DNA from: Escherichia phage vB_EcoM_G4498
Strand: one strand, 5' to 3'
Length of the DNA: 64,000 nucleotides
Sequence record: NC_054918.1
Made by a program: the position numbers and the translations under genes
In this document: positions 12,963-37,225 of the stretch, piece after piece
Position numbering within the stretch: position 1 is the first letter of the stretch
How the letters are laid out: every line of letters starts with the position of its first letter
The notes under the pieces: model-generated
Database searches by the model: none
What the model was told of the DNA's origin: nothing
The model's input: the letters and a program-made list of their open reading frames with translations, nothing else

Positions 12963-13283
12963 TTATAGCGTAATCCATTCTCGTACTGTCTGAGTTACTA
13001 CACGTTCTCGAAGCTCGACTAGTTCAACAGTCGGAACTGCATAATACCAGTCAGAATGATAAGAACCCGAACGGCATTCATTTACGGAAACATGTACGTT
13101 ATGTTTTGGACTAAAATAAACACACTGACGATATTGACATTTGCCGTCTTGCACCCAGTCTTCTATTTCGACAGGTTTAAGATAATCGGAAAAATCGAAA
13201 TCATAGTTTTCTGAAAATGCATCATGGTCTTCAATGATTTCACTCAGAACTGCATCAACATCTAATTTATTTTCAGTATTCAT
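12963..13283 (-). CDS. hypothetical acidic protein (106 aa)
   Basis: ORF in operon orientation. Confidence 0.45.
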   Translation of the reverse strand: MNTENKLDVDAVLSEIIEDHDAFSENYDFDFSDYLKPVEIEDWVQDGKCQYRQCVYFSPKHNVHVSVNECRSGSYHSDWYYAVPTVELVELRERVVTQTVREWITL

Positions 13284-13293
13284 TTTTCACCAA

Positions 13294-13503
13294 TTAATTT
13301 CGCAATTTATTAAGTTCTTCATAATCAATCCAGGATTCTAATCCTGATGGCAAATCAGATTCAATTTCCCAAAGAAGTTCTTCAATTTTATGAAGACGAT
13401 CTAGTTCTTCAGCAGGAATAGTAACCACTGACGGAGCTCTTGCTACATTAATATCGTAAATCATATTTACCCCAGTTTGACCATACAATCGCCGTATTTC
13501 CAC
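13294..13503 (-). CDS. hypothetical protein (69 aa)
   Basis: ORF. Confidence 0.4.
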   Translation of the reverse strand: MEIRRLYGQTGVNMIYDINVARAPSVVTIPAEELDRLHKIEELLWEIESDLPSGLESWIDYEELNKLRN

Positions 13504-13682
13504 TTAGAAATAGACTTTTCACCATTAGAATAATAAACTTCAAGTTTAGCACGATTATTTTTAATTTGAATAACCTTTGCTGCCATCAAAGTTCCATACC
13601 CATAATAAACTGCAACTTCATCACCTACATATACCGCGCTTCCGCGGTAATCGTGAATATAGTCAGTTCCTTCGAGCATCAT
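13467..13682 (-). CDS. hypothetical protein (71 aa)
   Basis: ORF overlapping neighbours at both ends. Confidence 0.4.
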   Translation of the reverse strand: MMLEGTDYIHDYRGSAVYVGDEVAVYYGYGTLMAAKVIQIKNNRAKLEVYYSNGEKSISKWKYGDCMVKLG

Positions 13683-13943: not shown

Positions 13944-14186
13944 TTATTCCTTAATTCCTAGTACTTGTTTAAAAGTCTCGTCGTAATCAAGACTTTGGCC
14001 CGTTTGTTCTTTATGTTTGTATATAATATCACTTACTTCTGATAGCATATTTTTATATGAACGAGTTAAAGCAGATTTAAGCACGCTGTATCTATCAGGA
14101 AATTTACCATGTTCATTATAATAAGCTATTGCTAATTCACGGACTGCCTTTTCAGCAGCCTCCATATATTCTTTACGCTTGGTCAT
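13944..14186 (-). CDS. hypothetical protein (about 80 aa from [15 protein letters not shown]...)
   Basis: ORF; N-terminal extension in the track is unlikely. Confidence 0.4.
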
Positions 14187-14490
14187 TTTCTTCTCGGTCA
14201 AATCGGTGTTTACAATGGCGACATTTATAACGAAGATTACTAGTCTGCCAATGGACCAATTGCACCTGTTCAGTTCCACATTCAGGGCAATTAGGAACGT
14301 TTTTAGAAGCACGTTCGCGACGTTCAACCATAACCATAATGGCATCCCAAGCAGGAGGTTTAAAGTCTAAATCGTCACAACCATGAATCTTTCCACGCAT
14401 TTCCAAATCGTCTTCTTCACCAGCCATAATAATTTTAATTAGACTAGAATTACTTGAAGCTGCAATGTCTTCTAATAGACGCTTTTTCAT
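14173..14490 (-). CDS. hypothetical protein with C-terminal zinc ribbon
   Basis: CPECG...CRHCKH motif. Confidence 0.45.
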
Positions 14491-15416
14491 TTCAATACCT
14501 CAATAGCATTACGTAAACCATTTGCTTTTGCATTAAGAGCTTTTAACAATTTGGTGTGTTCTGCAATTTGGGCTTCAACTTCAATCAAACGAGCATTGAG
14601 ATATTCGCGTTCTTCACTCAGATTATCAACCTTTTCTACTTTAGGCTCTTTTACAACTGTCTTATATGTATTAGGGTTCTTCAGTTTAATTAGAATGCGT
14701 GAACTGTATAACATTGAACCATTATTTTCGGTTTCGTCATACATTTCTACTACATCCATAATTTTTAACATCATGCGGAGTTTATAAGACAACGAACGAA
14801 TAGTTTTGTTGTGCTTATTAATTTCTTTAGCTGTCATGGTGCCGAGATTACGTGAGTAATAATAAGGAACCTGGATATTAATTAATACTGATGAACCACC
14901 TGGCTTGTGTGTTACTTCATCAGCAATAACCCAGTCCTTAACATGAACTGTATTTGTACGGTCATCACCCGCGGTAAACAGTTTGCGAGCATGCTTAAAA
15001 AGCATATTCACTTGGTCATTGAATTGACAAGCAAATTTATCAGCAAATTTAGTTTCAGGAATGGTAGATAACCAATCAGCCAAATGGGTCTTTTTAACAT
15101 CGTTAACAATAGTAAATTCAACCAAATCGGTTATAGATGTCGCAGATTTAACAAAGTTCGGCTTCATAAAGTTTTTAATGTTATCGTGAGCTACAGTAGA
15201 AGATAACATACGAGAACGTTTAAACCATTCAAGCAAATTGCCTAACGAATGAGAATAAGCGTTTTGAGTATCTTTACAGATATGATTTTCCTGGCTAACA
15301 TATTGAAGGAAATCACGAAGAATATTATTGATTACTGCTCTGTGTCCGATCTGATAATTACGATGTTTAGTAATAAGACTGTCAAAATAATCAATATAAT
15401 GTTTACGAGTTTTCAT
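14487..15416 (-). CDS. hypothetical protein (309 aa) with C-terminal coiled-coil tail
   Basis: C-terminus [42 protein letters not shown]; first of four similarly built tandem genes. Confidence 0.55.
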   Translation of the reverse strand: MKTRKHYIDYFDSLITKHRNYQIGHRAVINNILRDFLQYVSQENHICKDTQNAYSHSLGNLLEWFKRSRMLSSTVAHDNIKNFMKPNFVKSATSITDLVEFTIVNDVKKTHLADWLSTIPETKFADKFACQFNDQVNMLFKHARKLFTAGDDRTNTVHVKDWVIADEVTHKPGGSSVLINIQVPYYYSRNLGTMTAKEINKHNKTIRSLSYKLRMMLKIMDVVEMYDETENNGSMLYSSRILIKLKNPNTYKTVVKEPKVEKVDNLSEEREYLNARLIEVEAQIAEHTKLLKALNAKANGLRNAIEVLK

Positions 15417-15470
15417 GTTCTTCTCACTTGGTTAATGATTTATACTCCGAGCCATCCTTGGCTTTAAATT

Positions 15471-16472
15471 TTACTTAATTAACTGTAAAGCCTGTTCTAA
15501 ACGATCAAGACGATTAACAGATTCTTCCCAAATCCTTTTAGCCTGCTCATATTCTTTCTGCGCTTTATTAGAAATTTCTAGAACTTCTTTATAAGCTTTT
15601 TCTAATGCAATAACTTCTGGACGAATTTCTACCTGTTCAGGTGAATCATCAAGACATTCCATTAGTTCCTCAAGGGTAGTTTCTTCTTTAGGAGTATTCA
15701 CAATTTCATCACATTTTTGTTGGTAAATTTCTTTATTAGTCGGTGAGTACGCACACTTTACTTCACGAAGACTAATTATAATTTTATATCCTTCCCATCC
15801 ACACATATTTTTGAAAGGATATGTATGAATACTTTTTACAGTTTCCATACAGCCCAAAGCCGTCTCTAATTGATGAGTTATAGTGCTAGCAATTGAGAAA
15901 AATTTATTAATGTTCTTTTGATTAGCTGCTGGTGTAAAAAATCCATAATTCACAAAAATAGCTACTTTATTTTTATCAAGCTCATATTCTTTTACGATAA
16001 TCATATCAGAAGCCAAAGGATGAATTTGACGATAATCGCCATAACATAATTTAGAAGCTGATTTTAGAATTTGTCCTTTGAAAAGTCTGAAATTACTAAT
16101 CCAACGACGAGTAAAAATATTCTCAGGGTCTTCTTTGATATTAAGATGATAAGAATTAACATCACCGAACCAATTATATCCTACTACATCTTTGGTTCGT
16201 TTAATTTCTTTCCCAAAATTACCAAGAATATCCCGATTAACCAAATATGAAAGAAGACGAGATCCTTTAAAGGTTTTCTTAATGGCATCTTTATTTGTAC
16301 GACTAGAAATTTCATGAACTTCATGAATAAATTTGCCGGAAGAAACAATACTTGCATCAATATTATTGAGCCATTGATTGATAATAGAAAGAACACTATT
16401 TTGGCCAAACAGCGGTATAACTTTATCATCAATAACGCTATTGAATGATTTGATATATTCGTTACGAGTCAT
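15471..16472 (-). CDS. hypothetical protein (about 333 aa) with C-terminal coiled-coil tail
   Basis: start at MTRNEY (GAGGAG SD); C-terminus KAQKEYEQAKRIWEESVNRLDRLEQALQLIK. Confidence 0.55.
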   Translation of the reverse strand: MTRNEYIKSFNSVIDDKVIPLFGQNSVLSIINQWLNNIDASIVSSGKFIHEVHEISSRTNKDAIKKTFKGSRLLSYLVNRDILGNFGKEIKRTKDVVGYNWFGDVNSYHLNIKEDPENIFTRRWISNFRLFKGQILKSASKLCYGDYRQIHPLASDMIIVKEYELDKNKVAIFVNYGFFTPAANQKNINKFFSIASTITHQLETALGCMETVKSIHTYPFKNMCGWEGYKIIISLREVKCAYSPTNKEIYQQKCDEIVNTPKEETTLEELMECLDDSPEQVEIRPEVIALEKAYKEVLEISNKAQKEYEQAKRIWEESVNRLDRLEQALQLIK

Positions 16473-16498
16473 ATTAATCTCCTCAGTAGAAAGTAAGA

Positions 16499-16530
16499 AC
16501 ATTATACCACATCCTTGTGGCGAAGTAAAC
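16499..16530 (-). promoter_or_regulatory. T4-type early promoter (-35 GTTTAC, -10 TATAAT)
   Basis: minus-strand GTTTACTTCGCCACAAGGATGTGGTATAATG. Confidence 0.55.
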
Positions 16531-17549
16531 TAGTTCAGTGCATTTAGTGCGTTGTTCAGTTTAGAACGTTGCTTCGTGAGATTTTTGACTTTTTCTTGAG
16601 CTTTTTCTAGCATCTTTTCAGCTTCTAGCACTTCATTGGTCGCTTTAACGAGTTCATCATCTACTGCCTTGATAGACTTCTCAATCGCATCCGCGTGCCA
16701 TTTTTCAACAGGTTTAAGACTCGGATTTTCAATAGGAAGAAAATTCACTTTATTGAATTTCCATGCATCTTTATTGCCTGAACTATACATCCAAAATTTA
16801 GGATCGTTTGATGAGTAATTAGATAAATTTAAGTTATCTTGCACTTCTTGCTTTTTCTCTTGCGGGACTTCATCCTTTCTCAAAAAATCGTATTTAAATG
16901 AAACGATCATATCAAGTTCATATGTTGTTGTATGTTCCCAATTTCGCTCAAAACGAGGTAAAATCTTAGAATGAACAGCGGCAACAACATCCATATACTT
17001 AAATGCTTCTGTCAACTGCGATTTAAGGCATTCGCAAATTGAAAGAGAATTTTTTGTATTAGGTTTAAAGCTAATTCGTGCAGTTCTATTATTTTCTTTT
17101 AATGGTCTTACTTCCATCTGAAGAGTATAACCATCAAATTTCAGGTTCTTTAAGTTAATGTCAGAACCTTTTAATCGACTAGCCGTCGACAAAATTTGCT
17201 TTAATTGTTTACGGAATAGAGCAATAAATCTCCATTCAATACGATAATGATTTGGATTGAAAAATCCAGATGATAAATCGACCTTACTCTGACCAACACC
17301 TTGAACAAACAGAGGATTTTTATAATCAATAGTTTTACAGAAATCGGTGAGCTGCTCACGAGCAGTCATTTGTGTAATATACCCCGCTTTACTAAAATGA
17401 CGTAACCATTCACTGCTATTCATATATTTAAAGTGAATATCACGATTAACTTTATCAGGGTCTAAATTATTTTGGCACAAAAATGTCATAACATCACGAG
17501 TATAGCTGGCATTACGAACCATATCTTCAATTTGAGAACGAGTTTTCAT
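16530..17549 (-). CDS. hypothetical protein (339 aa) with C-terminal coiled-coil tail
   Basis: C-terminus VLEAEKMLEKAQEKVKNLTKQRSKLNNALNALN. Confidence 0.55.
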   Translation of the reverse strand: MKTRSQIEDMVRNASYTRDVMTFLCQNNLDPDKVNRDIHFKYMNSSEWLRHFSKAGYITQMTAREQLTDFCKTIDYKNPLFVQGVGQSKVDLSSGFFNPNHYRIEWRFIALFRKQLKQILSTASRLKGSDINLKNLKFDGYTLQMEVRPLKENNRTARISFKPNTKNSLSICECLKSQLTEAFKYMDVVAAVHSKILPRFERNWEHTTTYELDMIVSFKYDFLRKDEVPQEKKQEVQDNLNLSNYSSNDPKFWMYSSGNKDAWKFNKVNFLPIENPSLKPVEKWHADAIEKSIKAVDDELVKATNEVLEAEKMLEKAQEKVKNLTKQRSKLNNALNALN

Positions 17550-17557
17550 GGTGTTCC

Positions 17558-18445
17558 TTAAGATTTAAGTAAATCAACAATTTTAATTAACTTTTCACGC
17601 TCAGATTTAGCTTTACTACTCAATCCAGATAGTCTGAAAATTTCATCGTCATACTGTTGAATAGAAATATTCAGCTCTTCAATTTGCTTATTAAAATAAT
17701 CAATTTGCTCAGAATGTTTTTCATTACTGCGAACTGGTACAGGTTTTGTAGGCAATTTAGTTAAACTGGATTCATCCGGGCGATAAATTAAAATACAACT
17801 TGAACCAATCGGGCATTTAGCACCAGACACATATTCTAATGTTCCGGCTTCTTTTAAAACTTCAAAAGCTAAACAGAGATGATGCCCCATATTAACATAA
17901 TCTGTAGAGCGAGCTCTGACGTAATAATCATCGCCGCGAATACTAAATTTAAAGCATTTAAGGTCTTCTGTATTATTGGTCTTAAAAATCATTTGTTTAT
18001 CTAGACCTTTAGCTAATCGAGCGCCTAATGCTAATAATCGTCGTTGATTTTCCCACAAATCTGCGATCATTTGGTCAAATGATAATTTCGGCATTAGTCG
18101 ACCGTAAAGATCATAGCCTTTATTATAATTGCGAAGAATTTCACTTGCATTAATACGAGACAATGCTCCAATTTTATTAAGGGCTTTCATAATGCGATTA
18201 GATAAACCCATTCCAGACCCGTTTGTTCGCTGTAAATGTTTTTCTAATCCAAATCCAATATCAACTTTAAACTTATCTAAAATTTCTGCATGAACATCTC
18301 TGTCAATAACATTCAAATCCAAAGTTGGGTTAAATCTATGAAAAAATTTATCTGGCTCTCCACGACGAAGTACAGTCCATTCATTCAATTTTTTATTAAC
18401 TAAAGATTTAATTACTGCATTGACATTATTAATTACTACTGACAT
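17558..18445 (-). CDS. hypothetical protein (about 295 aa) with C-terminal coiled-coil tail
   Basis: start at MSVVINN (GAGGAAAAT SD); C-terminus QIEELNISIQQYDDEIFRLSGLSSKAKSEREKLIKIVDLLKS. Confidence 0.55.
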   Translation of the reverse strand: MSVVINNVNAVIKSLVNKKLNEWTVLRRGEPDKFFHRFNPTLDLNVIDRDVHAEILDKFKVDIGFGLEKHLQRTNGSGMGLSNRIMKALNKIGALSRINASEILRNYNKGYDLYGRLMPKLSFDQMIADLWENQRRLLALGARLAKGLDKQMIFKTNNTEDLKCFKFSIRGDDYYVRARSTDYVNMGHHLCLAFEVLKEAGTLEYVSGAKCPIGSSCILIYRPDESSLTKLPTKPVPVRSNEKHSEQIDYFNKQIEELNISIQQYDDEIFRLSGLSSKAKSEREKLIKIVDLLKS

Positions 18446-18452
18446 ATTTTCC

Positions 18453-18860
18453 TCACTCAATTTCAATTTTACTAAATACGCAGAATATGATGGAAAAGAC
18501 TATATAAGCACCGCATACAGATTGAACTAATACCATTCCAAAGAACCAAACAATATTATCAAACAATGTCTGTTTTACGTCGAAAGGACGTAAACTTACA
18601 GTAATATTATCGCCTTTTTCTATTGATGAATACATCTCTGGGGAAATATATTCGCTAAATCTATAACCGTCTTTGAGTTCATATACGGCAATAAACGATA
18701 AACTAGACCCCTTTCCTTGAGTTCCTGTAAGGGTATTAACTACAGTAACATCATAATCTTTATAATGCATATAATCATTAATTGCGTAATAACCATATGC
18801 AATTACTATACATAAACAACATATCAATAAATTCAATCTTTTAATTATCAACTGTTTCAT
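18453..18860 (-). CDS. membrane protein (135 aa, N- and C-terminal hydrophobic helices)
   Basis: hydrophobic segments LLICCLCIVIAYGYYAI and IVWFFGMVLVQSVCGAYIVFSIIFCVF. Confidence 0.5.
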   Translation of the reverse strand: MKQLIIKRLNLLICCLCIVIAYGYYAINDYMHYKDYDVTVVNTLTGTQGKGSSLSFIAVYELKDGYRFSEYISPEMYSSIEKGDNITVSLRPFDVKQTLFDNIVWFFGMVLVQSVCGAYIVFSIIFCVFSKIEIE

Positions 18861-18915
18861 AATAATCTCAATTAAAAGGGCTTAGAACCATTATACCATC
18901 CTTGGTATAAAGCGG

Positions 18916-19443
18916 TTATGCGAGTACCGTCTTTAACCGTTCTTCAAACTTCCGAAGAGTATTTTGGCGTTCAGCTCTTTGCTTTTTGTAAGTTTCAATA
19001 CGCTCTGAAATGAGAGTGTATCGTTCATTTACTGATTCTTTCATAAAATCAGGAATTTCACGAGAAGCTTTAATCTCGTCAAATTTATCAATAACAGCTT
19101 GCTCTTCAGCAATTAAGTTATCATACATCAAAATATCTTTCTTGATGAACTCAATATCTTCTTGAGTTACACGAGATAATTTAGATGCTTTATCCTTTTT
19201 GTACTGTTCGTTAGTATCACGAGACCAGTGTAATGTACGATTTTTATTCATATTCTTGTAAATTTCTACAATACCAATCTCATCGATAATAACGATCCAA
19301 TTCCAACGGGATTTGTAAATTTGTCCTCCATCAACAGTGATTTCACCTCCGATTGAGATGTCATTAAAGAACTTGCTTTGTGCTTCAGATTTAAATTTAC
19401 CATCATTGTAGTTTACCAAGTTGAAAATATCTTTAGCATTCAT
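18916..19443 (-). CDS. hypothetical protein (about 175 aa) with coiled-coil C-terminus
   Basis: start at MNAKDIFN (GGAGGA SD) just downstream of an early promoter. Confidence 0.5.
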   Translation of the reverse strand: MNAKDIFNLVNYNDGKFKSEAQSKFFNDISIGGEITVDGGQIYKSRWNWIVIIDEIGIVEIYKNMNKNRTLHWSRDTNEQYKKDKASKLSRVTQEDIEFIKKDILMYDNLIAEEQAVIDKFDEIKASREIPDFMKESVNERYTLISERIETYKKQRAERQNTLRKFEERLKTVLA

Positions 19444-19469
19444 TTTCTGTTCCTCCGTAGTTGATAGTT

Positions 19470-19501
19470 GTATAGTACCACAGAGGAACGGTCTTGTAAA
19501 C
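19470..19501 (-). promoter_or_regulatory. T4-type early promoter (-35 GTTTAC, -10 TACTAT)
   Basis: minus-strand GTTTACAAGACCGTTCCTCTGTGGTACTATACAACTATC. Confidence 0.5.
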
Positions 19502-19503
19502 AA

Positions 19504-19818
19504 CTAAAAGAAACTTCTTTCACAATTTTTTCCACTGAACCACGCACTCACTGCTTTCTTAGTCTCAGGAGCAGTGTTATCCATAAACCATTCAAAGGCA
19601 GCCTTTTTATGATTCTGGAGGGCTTCTCGGGCTTTAATCTGCTCACGGTCTATTAACACTAACATATGAGCCTTTCTTGTCACCAGGGGCTTCTTATGAT
19701 TTTTTGAATACTCCCAATCATTTGTCCATCGCATCGTTGTTGCGAATTGAAGTACAGCTTCCTTAATCTTAGTTTCGTAAATTTCACGAGCCTTTGAGTA
19801 TAACATCACTACCTCCAT
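19504..19818 (-). CDS. hypothetical protein (104 aa)
   Basis: ORF in operon orientation. Confidence 0.45.
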   Translation of the reverse strand: MEVVMLYSKAREIYETKIKEAVLQFATTMRWTNDWEYSKNHKKPLVTRKAHMLVLIDREQIKAREALQNHKKAAFEWFMDNTAPETKKAVSAWFSGKNCERSFF

Positions 19819-19907
19819 TTACCAGTTTAATTCTAGTCATCTTTTTGATGGCAGTCCATATAATCTATTTCTGAACTGCCTTTTTGTCATAGAAATCCTC
19901 TTATGAA

Positions 19908-20876
19908 TTATTTCAGAAGAGTAACCTCAGCGATTTCTTCCCAACCGTTTTTGTCGGTCATAATAAAGTCAGCAAGATAAAGCGCAGTACGCAGTGAAAC
20001 ATTGCGTAAACGATTAACATTGACTTTCATCCATGATAATGCTTTATAAGTTTCTTCATCAGAAAGACCACGCTTTTGCATCATGTCAGTTGAAAGAATA
20101 ACATCTTCAACCCTGACCATAATTTCTTCATTAGTGTGAACACCCAAATCCAAATAAACTGAGCGGGACACTAATGCTTGTAAATGTGGAGCAAGTTTAG
20201 TACCACGGTCTAATTCGCGGTCAATGTCAACGTTTGTGATAAAAACAATCGTTCCTTTAAATTCAAACTCACGCTCAATGCCTTTTTCTTCTAAGTAAGA
20301 AGATGCAGTGCTCCAGCAGACTTTACGGGTCTCTCCAGTGTCCAGAGCAGCTTTCAGAAGATTAAGAATGTCCATATCAGAGAAAACATCCACATCATCA
20401 ATCAAAAGGACAGAATTCTCTTCACGATTATTCCAGAGCTGTTCATAAAGACCGATACCAGAGATTTTACCGTTAATGCTTTTATATTCAATGTATCCAA
20501 TATCATTTGCTTTATTTAAAGCTTTATCTAAAGAATACGTTTTACCAATGCCTGCTGCGCCAGAGATAATTAATGAACGAATGTTTCCGTTAATAATACC
20601 ATTCGTCATCATTCCCATAACATTAAATCTTTTATTAATACGGGTTTTCATATCTTCATATGATTCTTTAACTTCTTCAACTTTTACGCCATCATATGAA
20701 ATGTCTGATTTGTAAACCCAAACACCGCGACGTTTACCGTCAATTTCAACAAAAACTTTACCATCTCCTTGTGCATCTACCGGAGCATTATCAGGGAACC
20801 ACTCACCTAAGAGTTCAAAAGTTCCAGAGATTTCTTTACCGAAGTAGATACCCTTATTGATAGTTACAGTTTTCAT
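19908..20876 (-). CDS. P-loop NTPase (AAA-like ATPase)
   Basis: start at MKTVTINKG (GGAG SD); Walker A GAAGIGKTY, Walker B-like VLLIDDVD. Confidence 0.6.
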   Translation of the reverse strand: MKTVTINKGIYFGKEISGTFELLGEWFPDNAPVDAQGDGKVFVEIDGKRRGVWVYKSDISYDGVKVEEVKESYEDMKTRINKRFNVMGMMTNGIINGNIRSLIISGAAGIGKTYSLDKALNKANDIGYIEYKSINGKISGIGLYEQLWNNREENSVLLIDDVDVFSDMDILNLLKAALDTGETRKVCWSTASSYLEEKGIEREFEFKGTIVFITNVDIDRELDRGTKLAPHLQALVSRSVYLDLGVHTNEEIMVRVEDVILSTDMMQKRGLSDEETYKALSWMKVNVNRLRNVSLRTALYLADFIMTDKNGWEEIAEVTLLK

Positions 20877-20909
20877 TTTATTCTCCAAATCCGTATCAGT
20901 TGATAGTTG

Positions 20910-20940
20910 TATAGTACCATAAAGCTTTATGCTTGTAAAC
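20910..20940 (-). promoter_or_regulatory. T4-type early promoter (-35 GTTTAC, -10 TACTAT)
   Basis: minus-strand GTTTACAAGCATAAAGCTTTATGGTACTATACAACTATC. Confidence 0.5.
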
Positions 20941-20961
20941 AACTTTGTGAAAAAATTTTGA

Positions 20962-20988
20962 AATAAAAAAGGGAGCCCGAAGGCTCCC
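20962..20988 (-). terminator. rho-independent terminator (GGGAGCC-ttcg-GGCTCCC + UUUUUUAUUUC)
   Basis: perfect 7-bp GC stem with tetraloop then U-run on minus strand, right after stop of upstream gene. Confidence 0.65.
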
Positions 20989-20990
20989 TA

Positions 20991-22004
20991 TCATTTATAA
21001 TAACTTCGATGGTTTTCAAGATAGACCTTCTCAAGGAAGTCATCCCAGAAACCCATGTCAACTTTTTGTTGCATACCGTTCTTAGAAGCTTCAGTAGATG
21101 CTGCTTCTACTTGATCGACCACATCTTCCAAAAACTCTTGAACCGTTTTAAATGGATGTTTACCCAACTTCACGTCGAGAATAAATGGAGCATCTTGGAG
21201 TGGATAAATCAAGTCGCCAGTTTTGTAAATTTCCAATAGTTGAAGTCCACCACGACAAGCATGACTCAGAGCTTTCCAGTCAATACCTTCGTTGGCTTCG
21301 GCCTTACGAGCGCGTTCACCGTATTCAGCATCTAATTTGTTCAGTGACTGCTTAAGCTCAATAAGAGAAAGCGTTGTCTGATATTTACGACCCAACACAG
21401 TGTAAAACGTCTGTGGGCCTGTTTTCTCATGATTATGAAACACCCATTCACAGAATTCGTTTTCTGGAAGACGATGCTTAATATCTTCAACTTTAGTGCG
21501 ACGCTGCTTAATAGAACCATCTTCTTGGTAATCAATCCATTGCTCAGGGATTTGATTAACTACTTTCAATACATCACGTAATGCAGCCAAACGAGAACCC
21601 TTGACACCGTATTTAGAAGCTTGCTTACGGACATATCCTAAATAGGATTTCATGTTAGTCGTATAAAAACGAGAACGGTTGTCTTGAATAAACTTCCACA
21701 CATCAGGCAAATCAGATTTAACCACTAGCTCAGGTGGAGTGTGAAGCATATCTAATGCTACAGTTTCACCATCTGCTGCTAATTTAAAGAAATATTTAAG
21801 ACTGTATAGTTCATGGTCAATATCATCTTTAGTGTTTTTAGATGATGTGTTGTTAGTGTTTTTACTCATGTGCTCTTTGACATTTCCGATAAGAATATCA
21901 CGAGCAGGAGGAACAAAAATTTCTTTAAAATCTACATCAGATTCTGGGGTAGAAGTTCCATAAAGATGACTACCAAAATAGCTTTTCATTACTGTTTTCA
22001 TCAT
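20991..22004 (-). CDS. nucleotidyltransferase-fold protein (Pol-beta superfamily-like)
   Basis: 337 aa; N-terminal motif YFGSHLYGTSTPESDVDF (G-S...D-x-D) with a later acidic strand ETVALDML. Confidence 0.55.
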   Translation of the reverse strand: MMKTVMKSYFGSHLYGTSTPESDVDFKEIFVPPARDILIGNVKEHMSKNTNNTSSKNTKDDIDHELYSLKYFFKLAADGETVALDMLHTPPELVVKSDLPDVWKFIQDNRSRFYTTNMKSYLGYVRKQASKYGVKGSRLAALRDVLKVVNQIPEQWIDYQEDGSIKQRRTKVEDIKHRLPENEFCEWVFHNHEKTGPQTFYTVLGRKYQTTLSLIELKQSLNKLDAEYGERARKAEANEGIDWKALSHACRGGLQLLEIYKTGDLIYPLQDAPFILDVKLGKHPFKTVQEFLEDVVDQVEAASTEASKNGMQQKVDMGFWDDFLEKVYLENHRSYYK

Positions 22005-22992: not shown

Positions 22993-23547
22993 TCACTTTG
23001 AAATCATAGTTGGAATGACAGAATCAAGATAAGTCTTTAGCGCAATAGCTTCGTCTTTGGTAAATGTGACAATATGTGCTCGAGAATCATCATTTTGGCG
23101 AACAAGTACGACATCGCCATCTTCATAAGAAGTCTTGACATCCAAAGTCGTAGTATAGTTTGCAGCTACTGGATTAATAATGTTAGCACCGCGATCTTTA
23201 GCCCATTGAAGTTTAGCCTTTTCGGGTGTTTCGACTGTTTCAGATTCTAAGAATTCTTTCACCTTGGCAACGAATGTTGCCCAATTGTTGATAGAAAGAC
23301 ACATAAATTCAGTTTCAATATTACCGCCGTAAAGGCCACGATAAAAACGAACTTGGAGGTCGCTTGTAATATTAGTTACACCGGTAACTCCTGAGGGAGC
23401 ATAAGATAAAATCGCAGCCAGTTCCATAGGAAGAATAGTAATACTATCGTCTTCCTGCGTCAGAACGTATACATTATCACGTTTTTCGATAACCAGGTCA
23501 CCGAACAAATCAGTTGTTTCAATTACAGCTTTCATATTATTTACCAA
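22993..23547 (-). CDS. hypothetical protein (184 aa), paralogue of previous
   Basis: shared C-terminal motif and similar length. Confidence 0.5.
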   Translation of the reverse strand: MVNNMKAVIETTDLFGDLVIEKRDNVYVLTQEDDSITILPMELAAILSYAPSGVTGVTNITSDLQVRFYRGLYGGNIETEFMCLSINNWATFVAKVKEFLESETVETPEKAKLQWAKDRGANIINPVAANYTTTLDVKTSYEDGDVVLVRQNDDSRAHIVTFTKDEAIALKTYLDSVIPTMISK

Positions 23548-35299: not shown

Positions 35300-35893
35300 T
35301 TATTTCAGAGAATTAATGTATTCCTGAACATCGGCAGAGGTAGTTTCAACCCCAGAAATATTACCATTAAAGGTTTCAACTCGAGCAAGAGTATCTTCAA
35401 TATCAACCTTAGTCAGCGCTGCAATTTCAACTACATCATCAGCAGTACTAATTCCAAGGGCATTTGCTGCACGAGTTTCACGGATATATTCCAATTTAAC
35501 TGCAAGTTCTTGGCGAGCATCATCTAACTCAACTACTTTCTTGGCGATTTCAATTCGCATTTCAGCATAACCATCAGCTTTAGTAGTCAACTGTTCAGCT
35601 GTTCGACGATATAGCAAACCAAGTTTAGCATGCATTGTTACATCTTGACCTTCAGAAAGAAGCTTGCGAATTTCACGCTCTTTTGATTCGGCCTGCTTAT
35701 TCTTTTCGACAATAAGTTCACGAATACGCTTTTCTTCATTAATAGATTTAACAGAAGCAGTTTTTAGATCTTTAATCTTATCAAGTAGTTTTGCTGCCGC
35801 AGCAGTATACTGTTCTTCAACGGATAAATTTTTAGCCATAGCAGAACCAAGTTTAGTGCGAATAAACTCAACAATTTTCTTCAGTGTGTTCAT
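35300..35893 (-). CDS. coiled-coil protein (197 aa), weakly PspA/IM30-like in architecture
   Basis: long heptad-rich helical sequence; no diagnostic motif. Confidence 0.45.
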
Positions 35894-36169
35894 AGTATTT
35901 CCTTAGGTTAATTAAGATTTAAAATCCATAAGAGTATTATTTGTAAACTATTTCAACATCGCCTTTTGCTGCTTTATAACCTTCAGCCCAAGATACAACC
36001 GAGTTTTTATCCGAAGATTCAAATTCTGGCATTGGGCTTTCGCCAATGTTCACGCAGTATGTTTCTTCATTTTCGTCAAACCAAATAATTAAAGTAGTCA
36101 TTTATTTCTCCGTTTCTGTATTTGTTTTGATAAGTCTATAATAACACCGTCCTTGGTGTTTGTACACAA

Positions 36170-36661: not shown

Positions 36662-37225
36662 TTATTTACATAGTTTAGTTATTATAGCTTCTGCAGCAGC
36701 TTTTAGCTTAGATGCGGTGTTAATACGATTTTTAATTTCAGTATATGCATCGCCAAGAACATCAAGGCTATCAGAATAAACACTTACACTATTGCGTTCG
36801 CTATTTGAAATAGAACCTTTAGTTTTACGATCAAAATCGGTATACACGTCTTGAAGATCGCGGGCTGCCTTCTTTGCATCATCCAATGCATCAAGAGCTT
36901 TATTCAAAGCATTGACATATTTTTTAGTGTCAAACATATTCTTAGAAATTTTAACAGGTGCACGTTCAGGAGTAGCTAATGCAGATTTAGAAACCTGAGC
37001 GCCAGATGCCAATTTCTTAGAAATTTTGAAAAATGCTTTATTGAAACTATTTTCTTGGCTCATCGTAAAAGAACTGTTATCGATGTTATACATTTCAATA
37101 GCTTTAGCTTTCCACTTAAGAAAATCGCCCCGGTCTTTTGGGTCCAAGTGGAAGAATACTTTAGTAAGATCTGCTTCAGATGGTAATTTTGCTGCTTCAG
37201 TTAAAAATTCGGCATAGGTTTTCAT
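36662..37225 (-). CDS. internal-protein-like protein with capsid-targeting leader (187 aa)
   Basis: N-terminus MKTYAEFLTEAA; AAGGA SD. Confidence 0.6.
   Translation of the reverse strand: MKTYAEFLTEAAKLPSEADLTKVFFHLDPKDRGDFLKWKAKAIEMYNIDNSSFTMSQENSFNKAFFKISKKLASGAQVSKSALATPERAPVKISKNMFDTKKYVNALNKALDALDDAKKAARDLQDVYTDFDRKTKGSISNSERNSVSVYSDSLDVLGDAYTEIKNRINTASKLKAAAEAIITKLCK

Follow-up and report, generated by a model that had tools for sequence, protein, structure and literature searches.

The window, that is, the whole 64,000-nucleotide stretch analysed, belongs to a T4-like Tequatrovirus genome, and megablast gives 98.5% to a Tequatrovirus annotated with nrdC.2-nrdC.6. Four adjoining ORFs of 295-339 aa, all on the minus strand, correspond to nrdC.3, nrdC.4, nrdC.5 and nrdC.6. 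The initial annotation had described them as tandem minus-strand genes of similar length that end in heptad tails; the ORFs and the heptad scores agree with this description, and every C-terminal peptide that it quoted is found in the ORFs. The genes and the elements between them are as follows.

14487-15416, minus strand: nrdC.3 paralogue, 309 aa; phrog_1435, E 2.6e-115
15417-15470, minus strand: spacer between nrdC.4 and nrdC.3; its promoter-like TATAAA is weak and no close match to the consensus
15471-16472, minus strand: nrdC.4 paralogue, 333 aa; phrog_1435, E 4.7e-166
16501-16529, minus strand: T4-type early promoter before nrdC.4, TTTACT-17-TATAAT with an extended -10 TG; 10/12 consensus
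16530-17549, minus strand: nrdC.5 paralogue, orthologue of the T4 anti-DSR1 factor, 339 aa; Pfam DUF7235, E 1.8e-126
17558-18445, minus strand: nrdC.6 paralogue, the most divergent member, 295 aa; phrog_2257, E 1.6e-152

The second ORF carries the name nrdC.4 in the KMB39 and T4 annotations. Its true start is the ATG at 16472, preceded by a GAGGAG Shine-Dalgarno sequence; the start of the 343-aa automatic call falls within the -10 box of a promoter. Judged from the sequence, nrdC.3-6 are read from the early-gene strand. They are accessory genes, and others have shown that all four are dispensable on K-12. The product of the window nrdC.5 is 92.7% identical to T4 NrdC.5 over 331/340 residues and is encoded at the syntenic position, which makes the two genes orthologues; both proteins belong to DUF7235 and no material difference separates them. 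By comparison, the window nrdC.3 has 60% identity to T4 NrdC.3 versus 76% to the Mosigvirus allele.

Although no phage is better studied than T4, nrdC.3-6 are still labelled hypothetical or, wrongly, thioredoxin. The thioredoxin/glutaredoxin label of many GenBank records, which would call for a thioredoxin-fold domain and its CxxC motif, was rejected, as the Pfam and NCBIfam matches include no Trx or Grx family, and the label is a carry-over from the gene name nrdC.x. A comparison with T4 nrdC.10/nrdC.11, which had been proposed as a check, is irrelevant, since these are different neighbouring genes.

In the family databases, nrdC.5 is a member of DUF7235 (PF23882), with 422 bits against a gathering threshold of 30 bits and an alignment that spans positions 1-307 of the 307-position model; nrdC.3, nrdC.4 and nrdC.6 have no match to this model. 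The nrdC.3 and nrdC.4 window proteins both match phrog_1435, and precomputed PF26897 labels are carried by 64/64 database homologues of nrdC.4 and by an nrdC.5::nrdC.3 chimera, while PF26899 labels, also precomputed, are found on 105/105 homologues of nrdC.6. The array is thereby distributed over PF26897 (nrdC.3/nrdC.4), PF23882 (nrdC.5) and PF26899 (nrdC.6), with PHROGs 1435, 2351 and 2257, and the Pfam and PHROG databases hold these as three unrelated families. Searching the PDB, NCBIfam and Pfam with the array sequences gave no meaningful match. A HMMER search of a library of 1.84 billion returned only 17 representatives, all from T4-like phages and none from bacteria, and a search for loci related to that of nrdC.5 returned close relatives only.

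The N-terminal bodies had been described as different from one another, which would agree with a history of domain shuffling, in which unrelated bodies gained a common C-terminal coiled-coil module, used by all of them for docking or hetero-oligomerisation. This description does not hold, as the bodies are divergent, colinear homologues. BLASTP directly links nrdC.3 with nrdC.4 (E 3e-7), and pairwise comparisons of nrdC.4 with nrdC.5 and of nrdC.5 with nrdC.6 gave no significant match, so that profiles were required. With hhalign, nrdC.3 matched the nrdC.4 family at 98.1% (E 7e-14) and nrdC.5 at 77% (E 2e-5). The shallow alignments of the separate families gave just E 0.004-0.2 among themselves, and this was resolved by adding divergent relatives from other genera. 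One of these relatives, the Klebsiella-phage protein P0237, acts as a bridge: it matches the nrdC.4 family at 93.4% over 230 columns and the nrdC.5 family at 94.5% over 234 columns. A super-profile built without nrdC.6 matched the nrdC.6 family at 94.7% (E 5.6e-8), over 90 columns only, and the nrdC.6 ORF was its top non-member among the 245 window ORFs. The joint alignment of the four families is coherent from an N-terminal M(K)TR motif through a C-terminal AL..LK motif.

The four proteins have a common predicted layout that consists, from the N- to the C-terminus, of a helical region, an α/β core, a disordered and indel-rich linker, and an amphipathic heptad helix. The core is composed of a β-meander, a helix pair and a ββαββ unit. 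AlphaFold2 models were obtained for two members, nrdC.5 (pLDDT 74) and nrdC.6 (pLDDT 79), and when compared without superposition they have their secondary-structure elements in identical order. Four Foldseek targets are common to the two models, and all are uncharacterised 300-335-aa proteins of the T4-like phages Mineola, Acj61, PM2 and fHe-Yen9-01. Taken together, the profile-profile bridges, the models and the shared Foldseek targets indicate that nrdC.3-6 form one superfamily, proposed here, which unites three separate Pfam families of unknown function.

In the nrdC.5 model, the predicted core resembles the phage tail-terminator fold, and the tail terminator or completion proteins similar to it are lambda gpU (3fz2), T5 p142 (8bcp), P74-26 (9oab) and SaPI1 (9mu2). 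A morphogenetic role in neck or tail assembly, akin to that of the terminators, is nevertheless extremely improbable. The array proteins have no sequence similarity to tail terminators, no Pfam terminator match and no similarity to any late gene of the window. Unlike terminators, they are encoded by non-essential genes in the early region, on the early-gene strand and with an early-promoter consensus, and beyond the core they carry extra parts, namely a helical region at the N-terminus, a linker that is disordered and a coiled-coil tail, with no sign of ring assembly.

The C-terminal tails were scored with a custom heptad score and shuffles, coiled coil being defined by hydrophobic periodicity at positions a and d over at least four heptads within a helix. 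All four proteins end in such a helix, 45-57 residues long; the coiled coil of the initial annotation is therefore real, and longer than the 35-40 residues given there. The linker and the tails map as follows.

14490-14624, minus strand: nrdC.3 heptad tail, last ~45 aa; a/d 0.90 versus 0.12
15474-15620, minus strand: nrdC.4 heptad tail, residues 285-333; family a/d 0.84 versus 0.27
16533-16703, minus strand: nrdC.5 coiled-coil helix, residues 283-339; family a/d 0.94 versus 0.21
16710-16862, minus strand: nrdC.5 linker, residues 230-280, disordered, pLDDT below 50, the least conserved part of the family (0.60), with indels in the joint alignment
17561-17722, minus strand: nrdC.6 heptad tail, residues 242-295, with a kink at SGLSS; a/d 0.78 versus 0.24

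Heptad periodicity is present in all four C-termini, with shuffle p values of 0.0025 (nrdC.3), 0.029, <0.0005 and 0.0105, none above 0.029. In the last 35 aa, 70-90% of the a/d positions are hydrophobic versus 8-20% elsewhere, and for the nrdC.4, nrdC.5 and nrdC.6 alignments the family-level values are 0.78-0.94 versus 0.21-0.27 over 49-57 residues. Among the 93 window ORFs of at least 100 aa, the four genes rank 1, 3, 6 and 12 by C-terminal heptad score. The AlphaFold2 model of nrdC.5 has a single 56-residue helix (283-338, pLDDT 81-90), and that of nrdC.6 has helices at 242-271 and 277-294. The tail has a putative role in oligomerisation, and a monomer model would fit just as well with a long helix that docks onto a partner.

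These tails provide the main arguments for shuffling. The heptad register, counted from the C-terminus, is identical in the four proteins, and the tails have in common a C-terminal A-h-x-x-h-K motif. The tail is also the best-conserved segment inside each orthologue group, as in the nrdC.4 family (0.79 versus 0.68 for the body). In addition, the adjoining nrdC.8 ends in a heptad tail, and in the metagenomic protein P0235 the exact nrdC.5 tail follows an unrelated head of 120 aa, the origin of which was sought and not traced. However, the tail profile matched the family only, both among the 245 window ORFs and among 184 ORFs of five related loci, with nrdC.8 at E 1.6, and P0235 occurs in none of 50,697 genomes of isolate phages and appears to have arisen by rearrangement. 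With colinear, homologous bodies, models of common topology and searches that reach identical Foldseek targets, shuffling is largely refuted for the bodies and, overall, has little probability. The earlier idea of a modular family thus stands as regards the family and its shared coiled-coil tail, and falls as regards unrelated bodies on a docking tail. Instead, the array arose by whole-gene tandem duplication and divergence. No DNA-level repeats linking the paralogues were found, which indicates that the duplications are old. At the sequence level, further membership was rejected for nrdC.8 and also, in Kanagawavirus, Marfavirus and Jiaodavirus phages, for neighbours of 257 aa and 140 aa.

The copy number varies from one to four by genus, and phage LYE-01 is without nrdC.4. 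The most widely kept member is nrdC.6, found in 740 phage records versus 552-580 for nrdC.4 and nrdC.5. Identity to T4 has a trough over the array, with 60-93% for nrdC.3-5 and 96.5% for nrdC.6 versus 98-100% in more distant flanking genes. Similarly, dN/dS is 0.30 for nrdC.3, 0.24 for nrdC.4 and 0.16 for nrdC.5 versus 0.02-0.14 for the flanking genes, while nrdC.6 (0.07) evolves slowly, unlike a typical arms-race gene. Gene-wide dN/dS is below 1 throughout and gives no support for positive selection.

Functional evidence within the array concerns nrdC.5 alone. T4 nrdC.5 restores infection and plating on dsr1 hosts (Srikant et al. 2022, PMC9391042); that study reports the phenotype only, with no fold, mechanism or link of nrdC.5 to nrdC.3, nrdC.4 or nrdC.6. 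In the same neighbourhood, gp49.2 is an anti-OLD protein (PMC13096335) and nrdC.1 is anti-Septu (preprint 10.1101/2025.11.20.689424); in the HIDEN-SEQ main text, nrdC.1 is the only gene from this locus named as a new anti-defence gene. The best explanation overall, which we consider probable, is that nrdC.3-6 are ancient tandem duplicates that form a diversified counter-defence family. The published anti-DSR1 role of nrdC.5 is consistent with the initial suggestion of diversified binders. The body of each paralogue would bind and block a different host immune protein, and nrdC.5 has already been shown to neutralise the NAD-depleting sensor DSR1. By oligomerising the protein, the coiled-coil tail would confer avidity for oligomeric sensors. 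Direct target binding and the role of the tail are inferred here, as are the anti-defence roles of nrdC.3, nrdC.4 and nrdC.6. Since nrdC.5 defeats DSR1, each of these three may well be a counter-defence factor still to be discovered, and they become priority candidates as inhibitors of other defence systems.

An alternative is that counter-defence falls to nrdC.5 alone and that the array is no repertoire for immune evasion; the other three would be redundant copies in part, or would serve some other purpose early in infection, for instance in taking over the host or in regulation. It would account for the lack of a reported phenotype for nrdC.3, nrdC.4 and nrdC.6, and for the strong purifying selection and wide retention of nrdC.6. 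Against it, all four genes are dispensable on K-12, proven anti-defence genes surround the array, and nrdC.3 and nrdC.4 evolve fastest, with presence/absence variation, so that this alternative is unlikely, though the most serious of those weighed. Far less probable is a catalytic or indirect action, on NAD metabolism or host gene expression, in place of stoichiometric sensor binding. DSR1 does act by depleting NAD, and enzymes are what other phages use against such systems (NARP pathways), but the Pfam, NCBIfam and PDB sequence searches revealed no enzymatic domain, the fold matches are structural proteins, and no catalytic-looking invariant motif exists across the four families, where the joint alignment has only T3, R4 and F70 as invariants.

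For the diversified counter-defence family, a functional analogy, and only that, is provided by DSAD1 of phage SPbeta, which inhibits DSR2, a NADase sensor of the SIR2 type; published structures have DSAD1 bound to the sensor region. However, DSR2 is triggered by a tail tube protein, and for DSR1 the reported trigger is not a tail protein but the major capsid protein (PMC12803255). Because of this trigger, a simple model in which nrdC.5 mimics the trigger of DSR1 is unsupported and was set aside. It is conceivable, though rather doubtful, that the array encodes decoys, expressed early and derived from the fold of a virion protein of the tail terminator or neck type, with the coiled coil for multivalency. 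Each paralogue would then have its own target among the pattern-recognition proteins of the host and would fill the fold-recognising TPR-type sensor of that target without activating it, with DSR1 and Avs families as candidates; for one Avs family, sensing of tail terminators has been reported (PMC12803255). Tandem duplication among the coliphages would then follow how varied these sensors are in E. coli, and, if this idea is true, it would be a case of a virion fold being put to new use by a phage, so that immune receptors which recognise folds are blinded. In any case, the map of body, linker and tail offers a concrete basis for dissecting NrdC.5 action.

Like the array, gp49.2 and NrdC.1, the products of other polymorphic T4 anti-defence genes, are non-essential and encoded in the early region of the same neighbourhood, but they are small, single-copy and unrelated proteins. 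The window copies are 96% (gp49.2) and 98.8% (NrdC.1) identical to their T4 counterparts.

The array is a known T4 gene set, one member of which has a published anti-defense phenotype; what is added here is the paralogy of its members, their common body-linker-coiled-coil architecture, and a tail-terminator-like core. The window is from a T4-like phage; its 4.1-kb array region shares 98.5% identity with that of Escherichia phage vB-Eco-KMB39, and at least 80% of it is covered in 461 phage records. The four ORFs bear the same names in both vB-Eco-KMB39 and T4, and they are flanked by nrdC/nrdC.1/nrdC.2 on one side and by nrdC.7-nrdC.11 on the other.

Features of the array
14487-15416, minus strand: nrdC.3, 309 aa
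15471-16472, minus strand: nrdC.4, 333 aa
16529-16501, minus strand: T4-type early promoter consensus of nrdC.4, TTTACT-17-TATAAT with extended -10 TG
16530-17549, minus strand: nrdC.5, 339 aa
17558-18445, minus strand: nrdC.6, 295 aa

The true start of nrdC.4 is the annotated ATG at 16472, which is preceded by a GAGGAG Shine-Dalgarno sequence; the ATG of the mechanical 343-aa ORF sits within the -10 box of the early promoter. In many phage records every nrdC.x gene, the four of the array included, is labeled "thioredoxin" (window 14173-22004). This label appears to be inherited from the gene name, and none of the nrdC.3-nrdC.6 products contains a thioredoxin or glutaredoxin domain. By exact-sequence look-up, nrdC.4 (333 aa) and nrdC.5 (339 aa) fall into one 90%-identity cluster, which is impossible by their identity and may be due to chimeric bridging sequences in the clustering.

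According to the initial annotation, the N-terminal bodies of the four proteins differ. This view was not borne out: BLASTP, hhalign and a super-profile indicate divergent paralogues, and AlphaFold2 (AF2) models agree. The nrdC.3 and nrdC.4 products share a PHROG and match each other by BLASTP (E 3e-7) and hhalign (98.1%), which also linked nrdC.5 to nrdC.3 (77%, E 2e-5) and, colinearly across 238 columns, to nrdC.4 (E 5.5e-4). When the joint nrdC.3/4/5 profile was run with HMMER across the whole library, only 17 representatives among 1.84 billion were retrieved; one of them, a protein of Klebsiella Marfavirus phages, matches both the nrdC.4 family (93.4%, 230 columns) and the nrdC.5 family (94.5%, 234 columns). 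The joint alignment is coherent, running from an N-terminal M(K)TR..(Y)I through F-K-x-S-R-h-L-S and W-x-x-x-F-R...I-L-K-x-A-S-K-L-x-x-G-D to a C-terminal A-L-x-x-L-K. The outlier is nrdC.6, for which family-to-family comparisons reach only E 0.003-0.2. A super-profile built from 27 varied nrdC.3/4/5-type sequences matched its family at 94.7% (E 5.6e-8), over a 90-column core that holds the body motifs of the joint alignment, and ranked the nrdC.6 ORF as the top non-member among 245 window ORFs. It is concluded that PF26897, DUF7235, and PF26899 constitute a single superfamily confined to T4-like phages. The paralogues have no DNA-level similarity to one another, so the duplications that produced the array are old.

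The AF2 models of nrdC.6 (pLDDT 79) and nrdC.5 (pLDDT 74) place their elements in the same order, with N-terminal helices followed by a small beta-meander, a helix pair, a ββαββ unit, a disordered linker, and a C-terminal helix. With Foldseek against BFVD, both retrieved the same uncharacterized 300-335-aa proteins of distant T4-like phages (E 1e-3 to 5e-7), namely those of Klebsiella Mineola, Acinetobacter Acj61, Pectobacterium PM2, and Yersinia fHe-Yen9-01, in agreement with the profile evidence for paralogous bodies. For none of the four products was there an enzymatic domain, a relative in the PDB, or a match in NCBIfam.

The heptad tails quoted earlier for the four proteins were all found in the sequence, and their periodicity was borne out by heptad scores, family alignments, and AF2 helices; the proposed length of 35-40 residues was too short, as the coiled-coil segment is longer. 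In the last 35 residues, scored in the best register, a/d positions are 70-90% hydrophobic versus 8-20% elsewhere (p by shuffling: nrdC.3, 0.0025; nrdC.4, 0.029; nrdC.5, <0.0005; nrdC.6, 0.0105), and the register counted from the C-terminus is identical in all four. The nrdC.4, nrdC.5, and nrdC.6 family alignments keep the pattern across 49-57 residues (a/d 0.78-0.94 versus 0.21-0.27). The nrdC.5 tail is predicted as a single 56-residue helix, that of nrdC.6 as two helices with an SGLSS kink between them. C-terminal heptad score places the array proteins at ranks 1, 3, 6, and 12 of the 93 window ORFs that are 100 aa or longer. Conservation within every orthologue group is highest in the tail and lowest in the linker. 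A tail-only profile matched no further protein in the window and five related loci; thus, the tail is not a module common to unrelated bodies.

Another heptad-periodic C-terminus occurs in nrdC.8 (18916-19443, 175 aa, rank 4 of 93), for which no profile similarity to the array family was seen, and high C-terminal heptad scores were given by minus-strand ORFs at 35303-35902 (200 aa, rank 5) and 36665-37225 (187 aa, rank 2). A 175-aa protein of Klebsiella phage KPV15 matches the nrdC.5 model weakly (E 4e-3). Two further sequences carry the tail, one a 173-aa metagenomic protein with an unrelated 120-aa head joined to an exact 53-aa nrdC.5 tail, the other a 67-aa ORF that is nearly all tail; their heads were not found in isolate phage genomes.

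Regarding function, a T4 deletion mutant regained plating on E. coli with the SIR2-type defense gene dsr1 when T4 nrdC.5 was expressed (PMC9391042), and the T4 protein tested is 92.7% identical to that of the window. Of the array's neighbors, gp49.2 inhibits OLD (PMC13096335) and nrdC.1 inhibits Septu (preprint 10.1101/2025.11.20.689424). Orthologues of both lie just downstream of the array, at 12963-13283 (gp49.2, 96% to T4) and 13944-14186 (NrdC.1, 98.8%), so that the 49.1-nrdC.6 stretch looks like an anti-defense island. Transposon insertions are tolerated in all four array genes of T4. The best-supported reading is that the array is a diversified counter-defense family, whose products would act by binding host immune proteins and would be made oligomeric by the coiled coil; the direct binding, what the tail does, and any anti-defense function of nrdC.3, nrdC.4, and nrdC.6 are inferred. 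The main value here lies in a clear, testable prediction, namely that the three uncharacterized paralogues are inhibitors of other defense systems.

A decoy role is suggested by a recent preprint reporting that TPR-type sensors, including that of DSR1, recognize virion-protein folds and that tail terminators are sensed by one Avs family (PMC12803255). The alpha/beta core of the nrdC.5 model resembles the tail-terminator fold, with a moderate score in a moderate-confidence model; the model was built without templates and from an alignment lacking terminators, and the resemblance thus stems from the model itself. DSR1 is reported to be triggered by the major capsid protein, and simple trigger mimicry of DSR1 is therefore not supported. 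Overall, the decoy role seems improbable.

The syntenic site holds one copy in Kanagawavirus, Marfavirus, and Jiaodavirus phages, three in Mosigvirus-type phages and Dhakavirus, and four in Tequatrovirus. Within Tequatrovirus the number is polymorphic, as phage LYE-01 (locus L014, 2011-4922) has nrdC.6, nrdC.5, and nrdC.3, without nrdC.4. A 167-kb contig encodes an in-frame nrdC.5::nrdC.3 fusion with its junction at a short KVN/QVN match. The T4 reference nrdC.6 (AF158101; locus L010, 7022-7849) encodes 275 aa with a frameshifted C-terminus and no coiled-coil tail; in T4T and most relatives the protein has 295-296 aa and the tail is present. A 378-aa nrdC.6 homologue in Shigella phage Sf25 has an internal duplication of ~85 residues spanning the beta-domain and linker, which may be genuine or an artefact of assembly.

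At the protein level, the window matches T4 with an amino-acid identity of 98-100% for the more distant flanking genes, 92.5% for nrdC.7, 96.5% for nrdC.6, 92.7% for nrdC.5, 91.3% for nrdC.4, 60% for nrdC.3, and 89.6% for nrdC.2. The window nrdC.3 is nearer to the Mosigvirus-type allele (76%) than to that of T4, a pattern suggestive of inter-genus exchange. Against seven relatives, dN/dS averages 0.30 for nrdC.3, 0.24 for nrdC.4, 0.16 for nrdC.5, and 0.07 for nrdC.6, versus 0.02-0.14 for flanking genes; nrdC.3-5 thus evolve faster, and positive selection on them is not demonstrable by these means. Among close relatives, nrdC.2 and nrdC.3 (14173-15416) occur as two deeply divergent alleles (dS ~1). 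The window lacks a match to T4 gene 49.3, whose place (13294-13682) is taken by two different small ORFs of 69 and 71 aa. The mobD.1 homologue (22996-23532) is 47% identical to that of T4, the T4 mobD homing-endonuclease gene being left out of the comparison.
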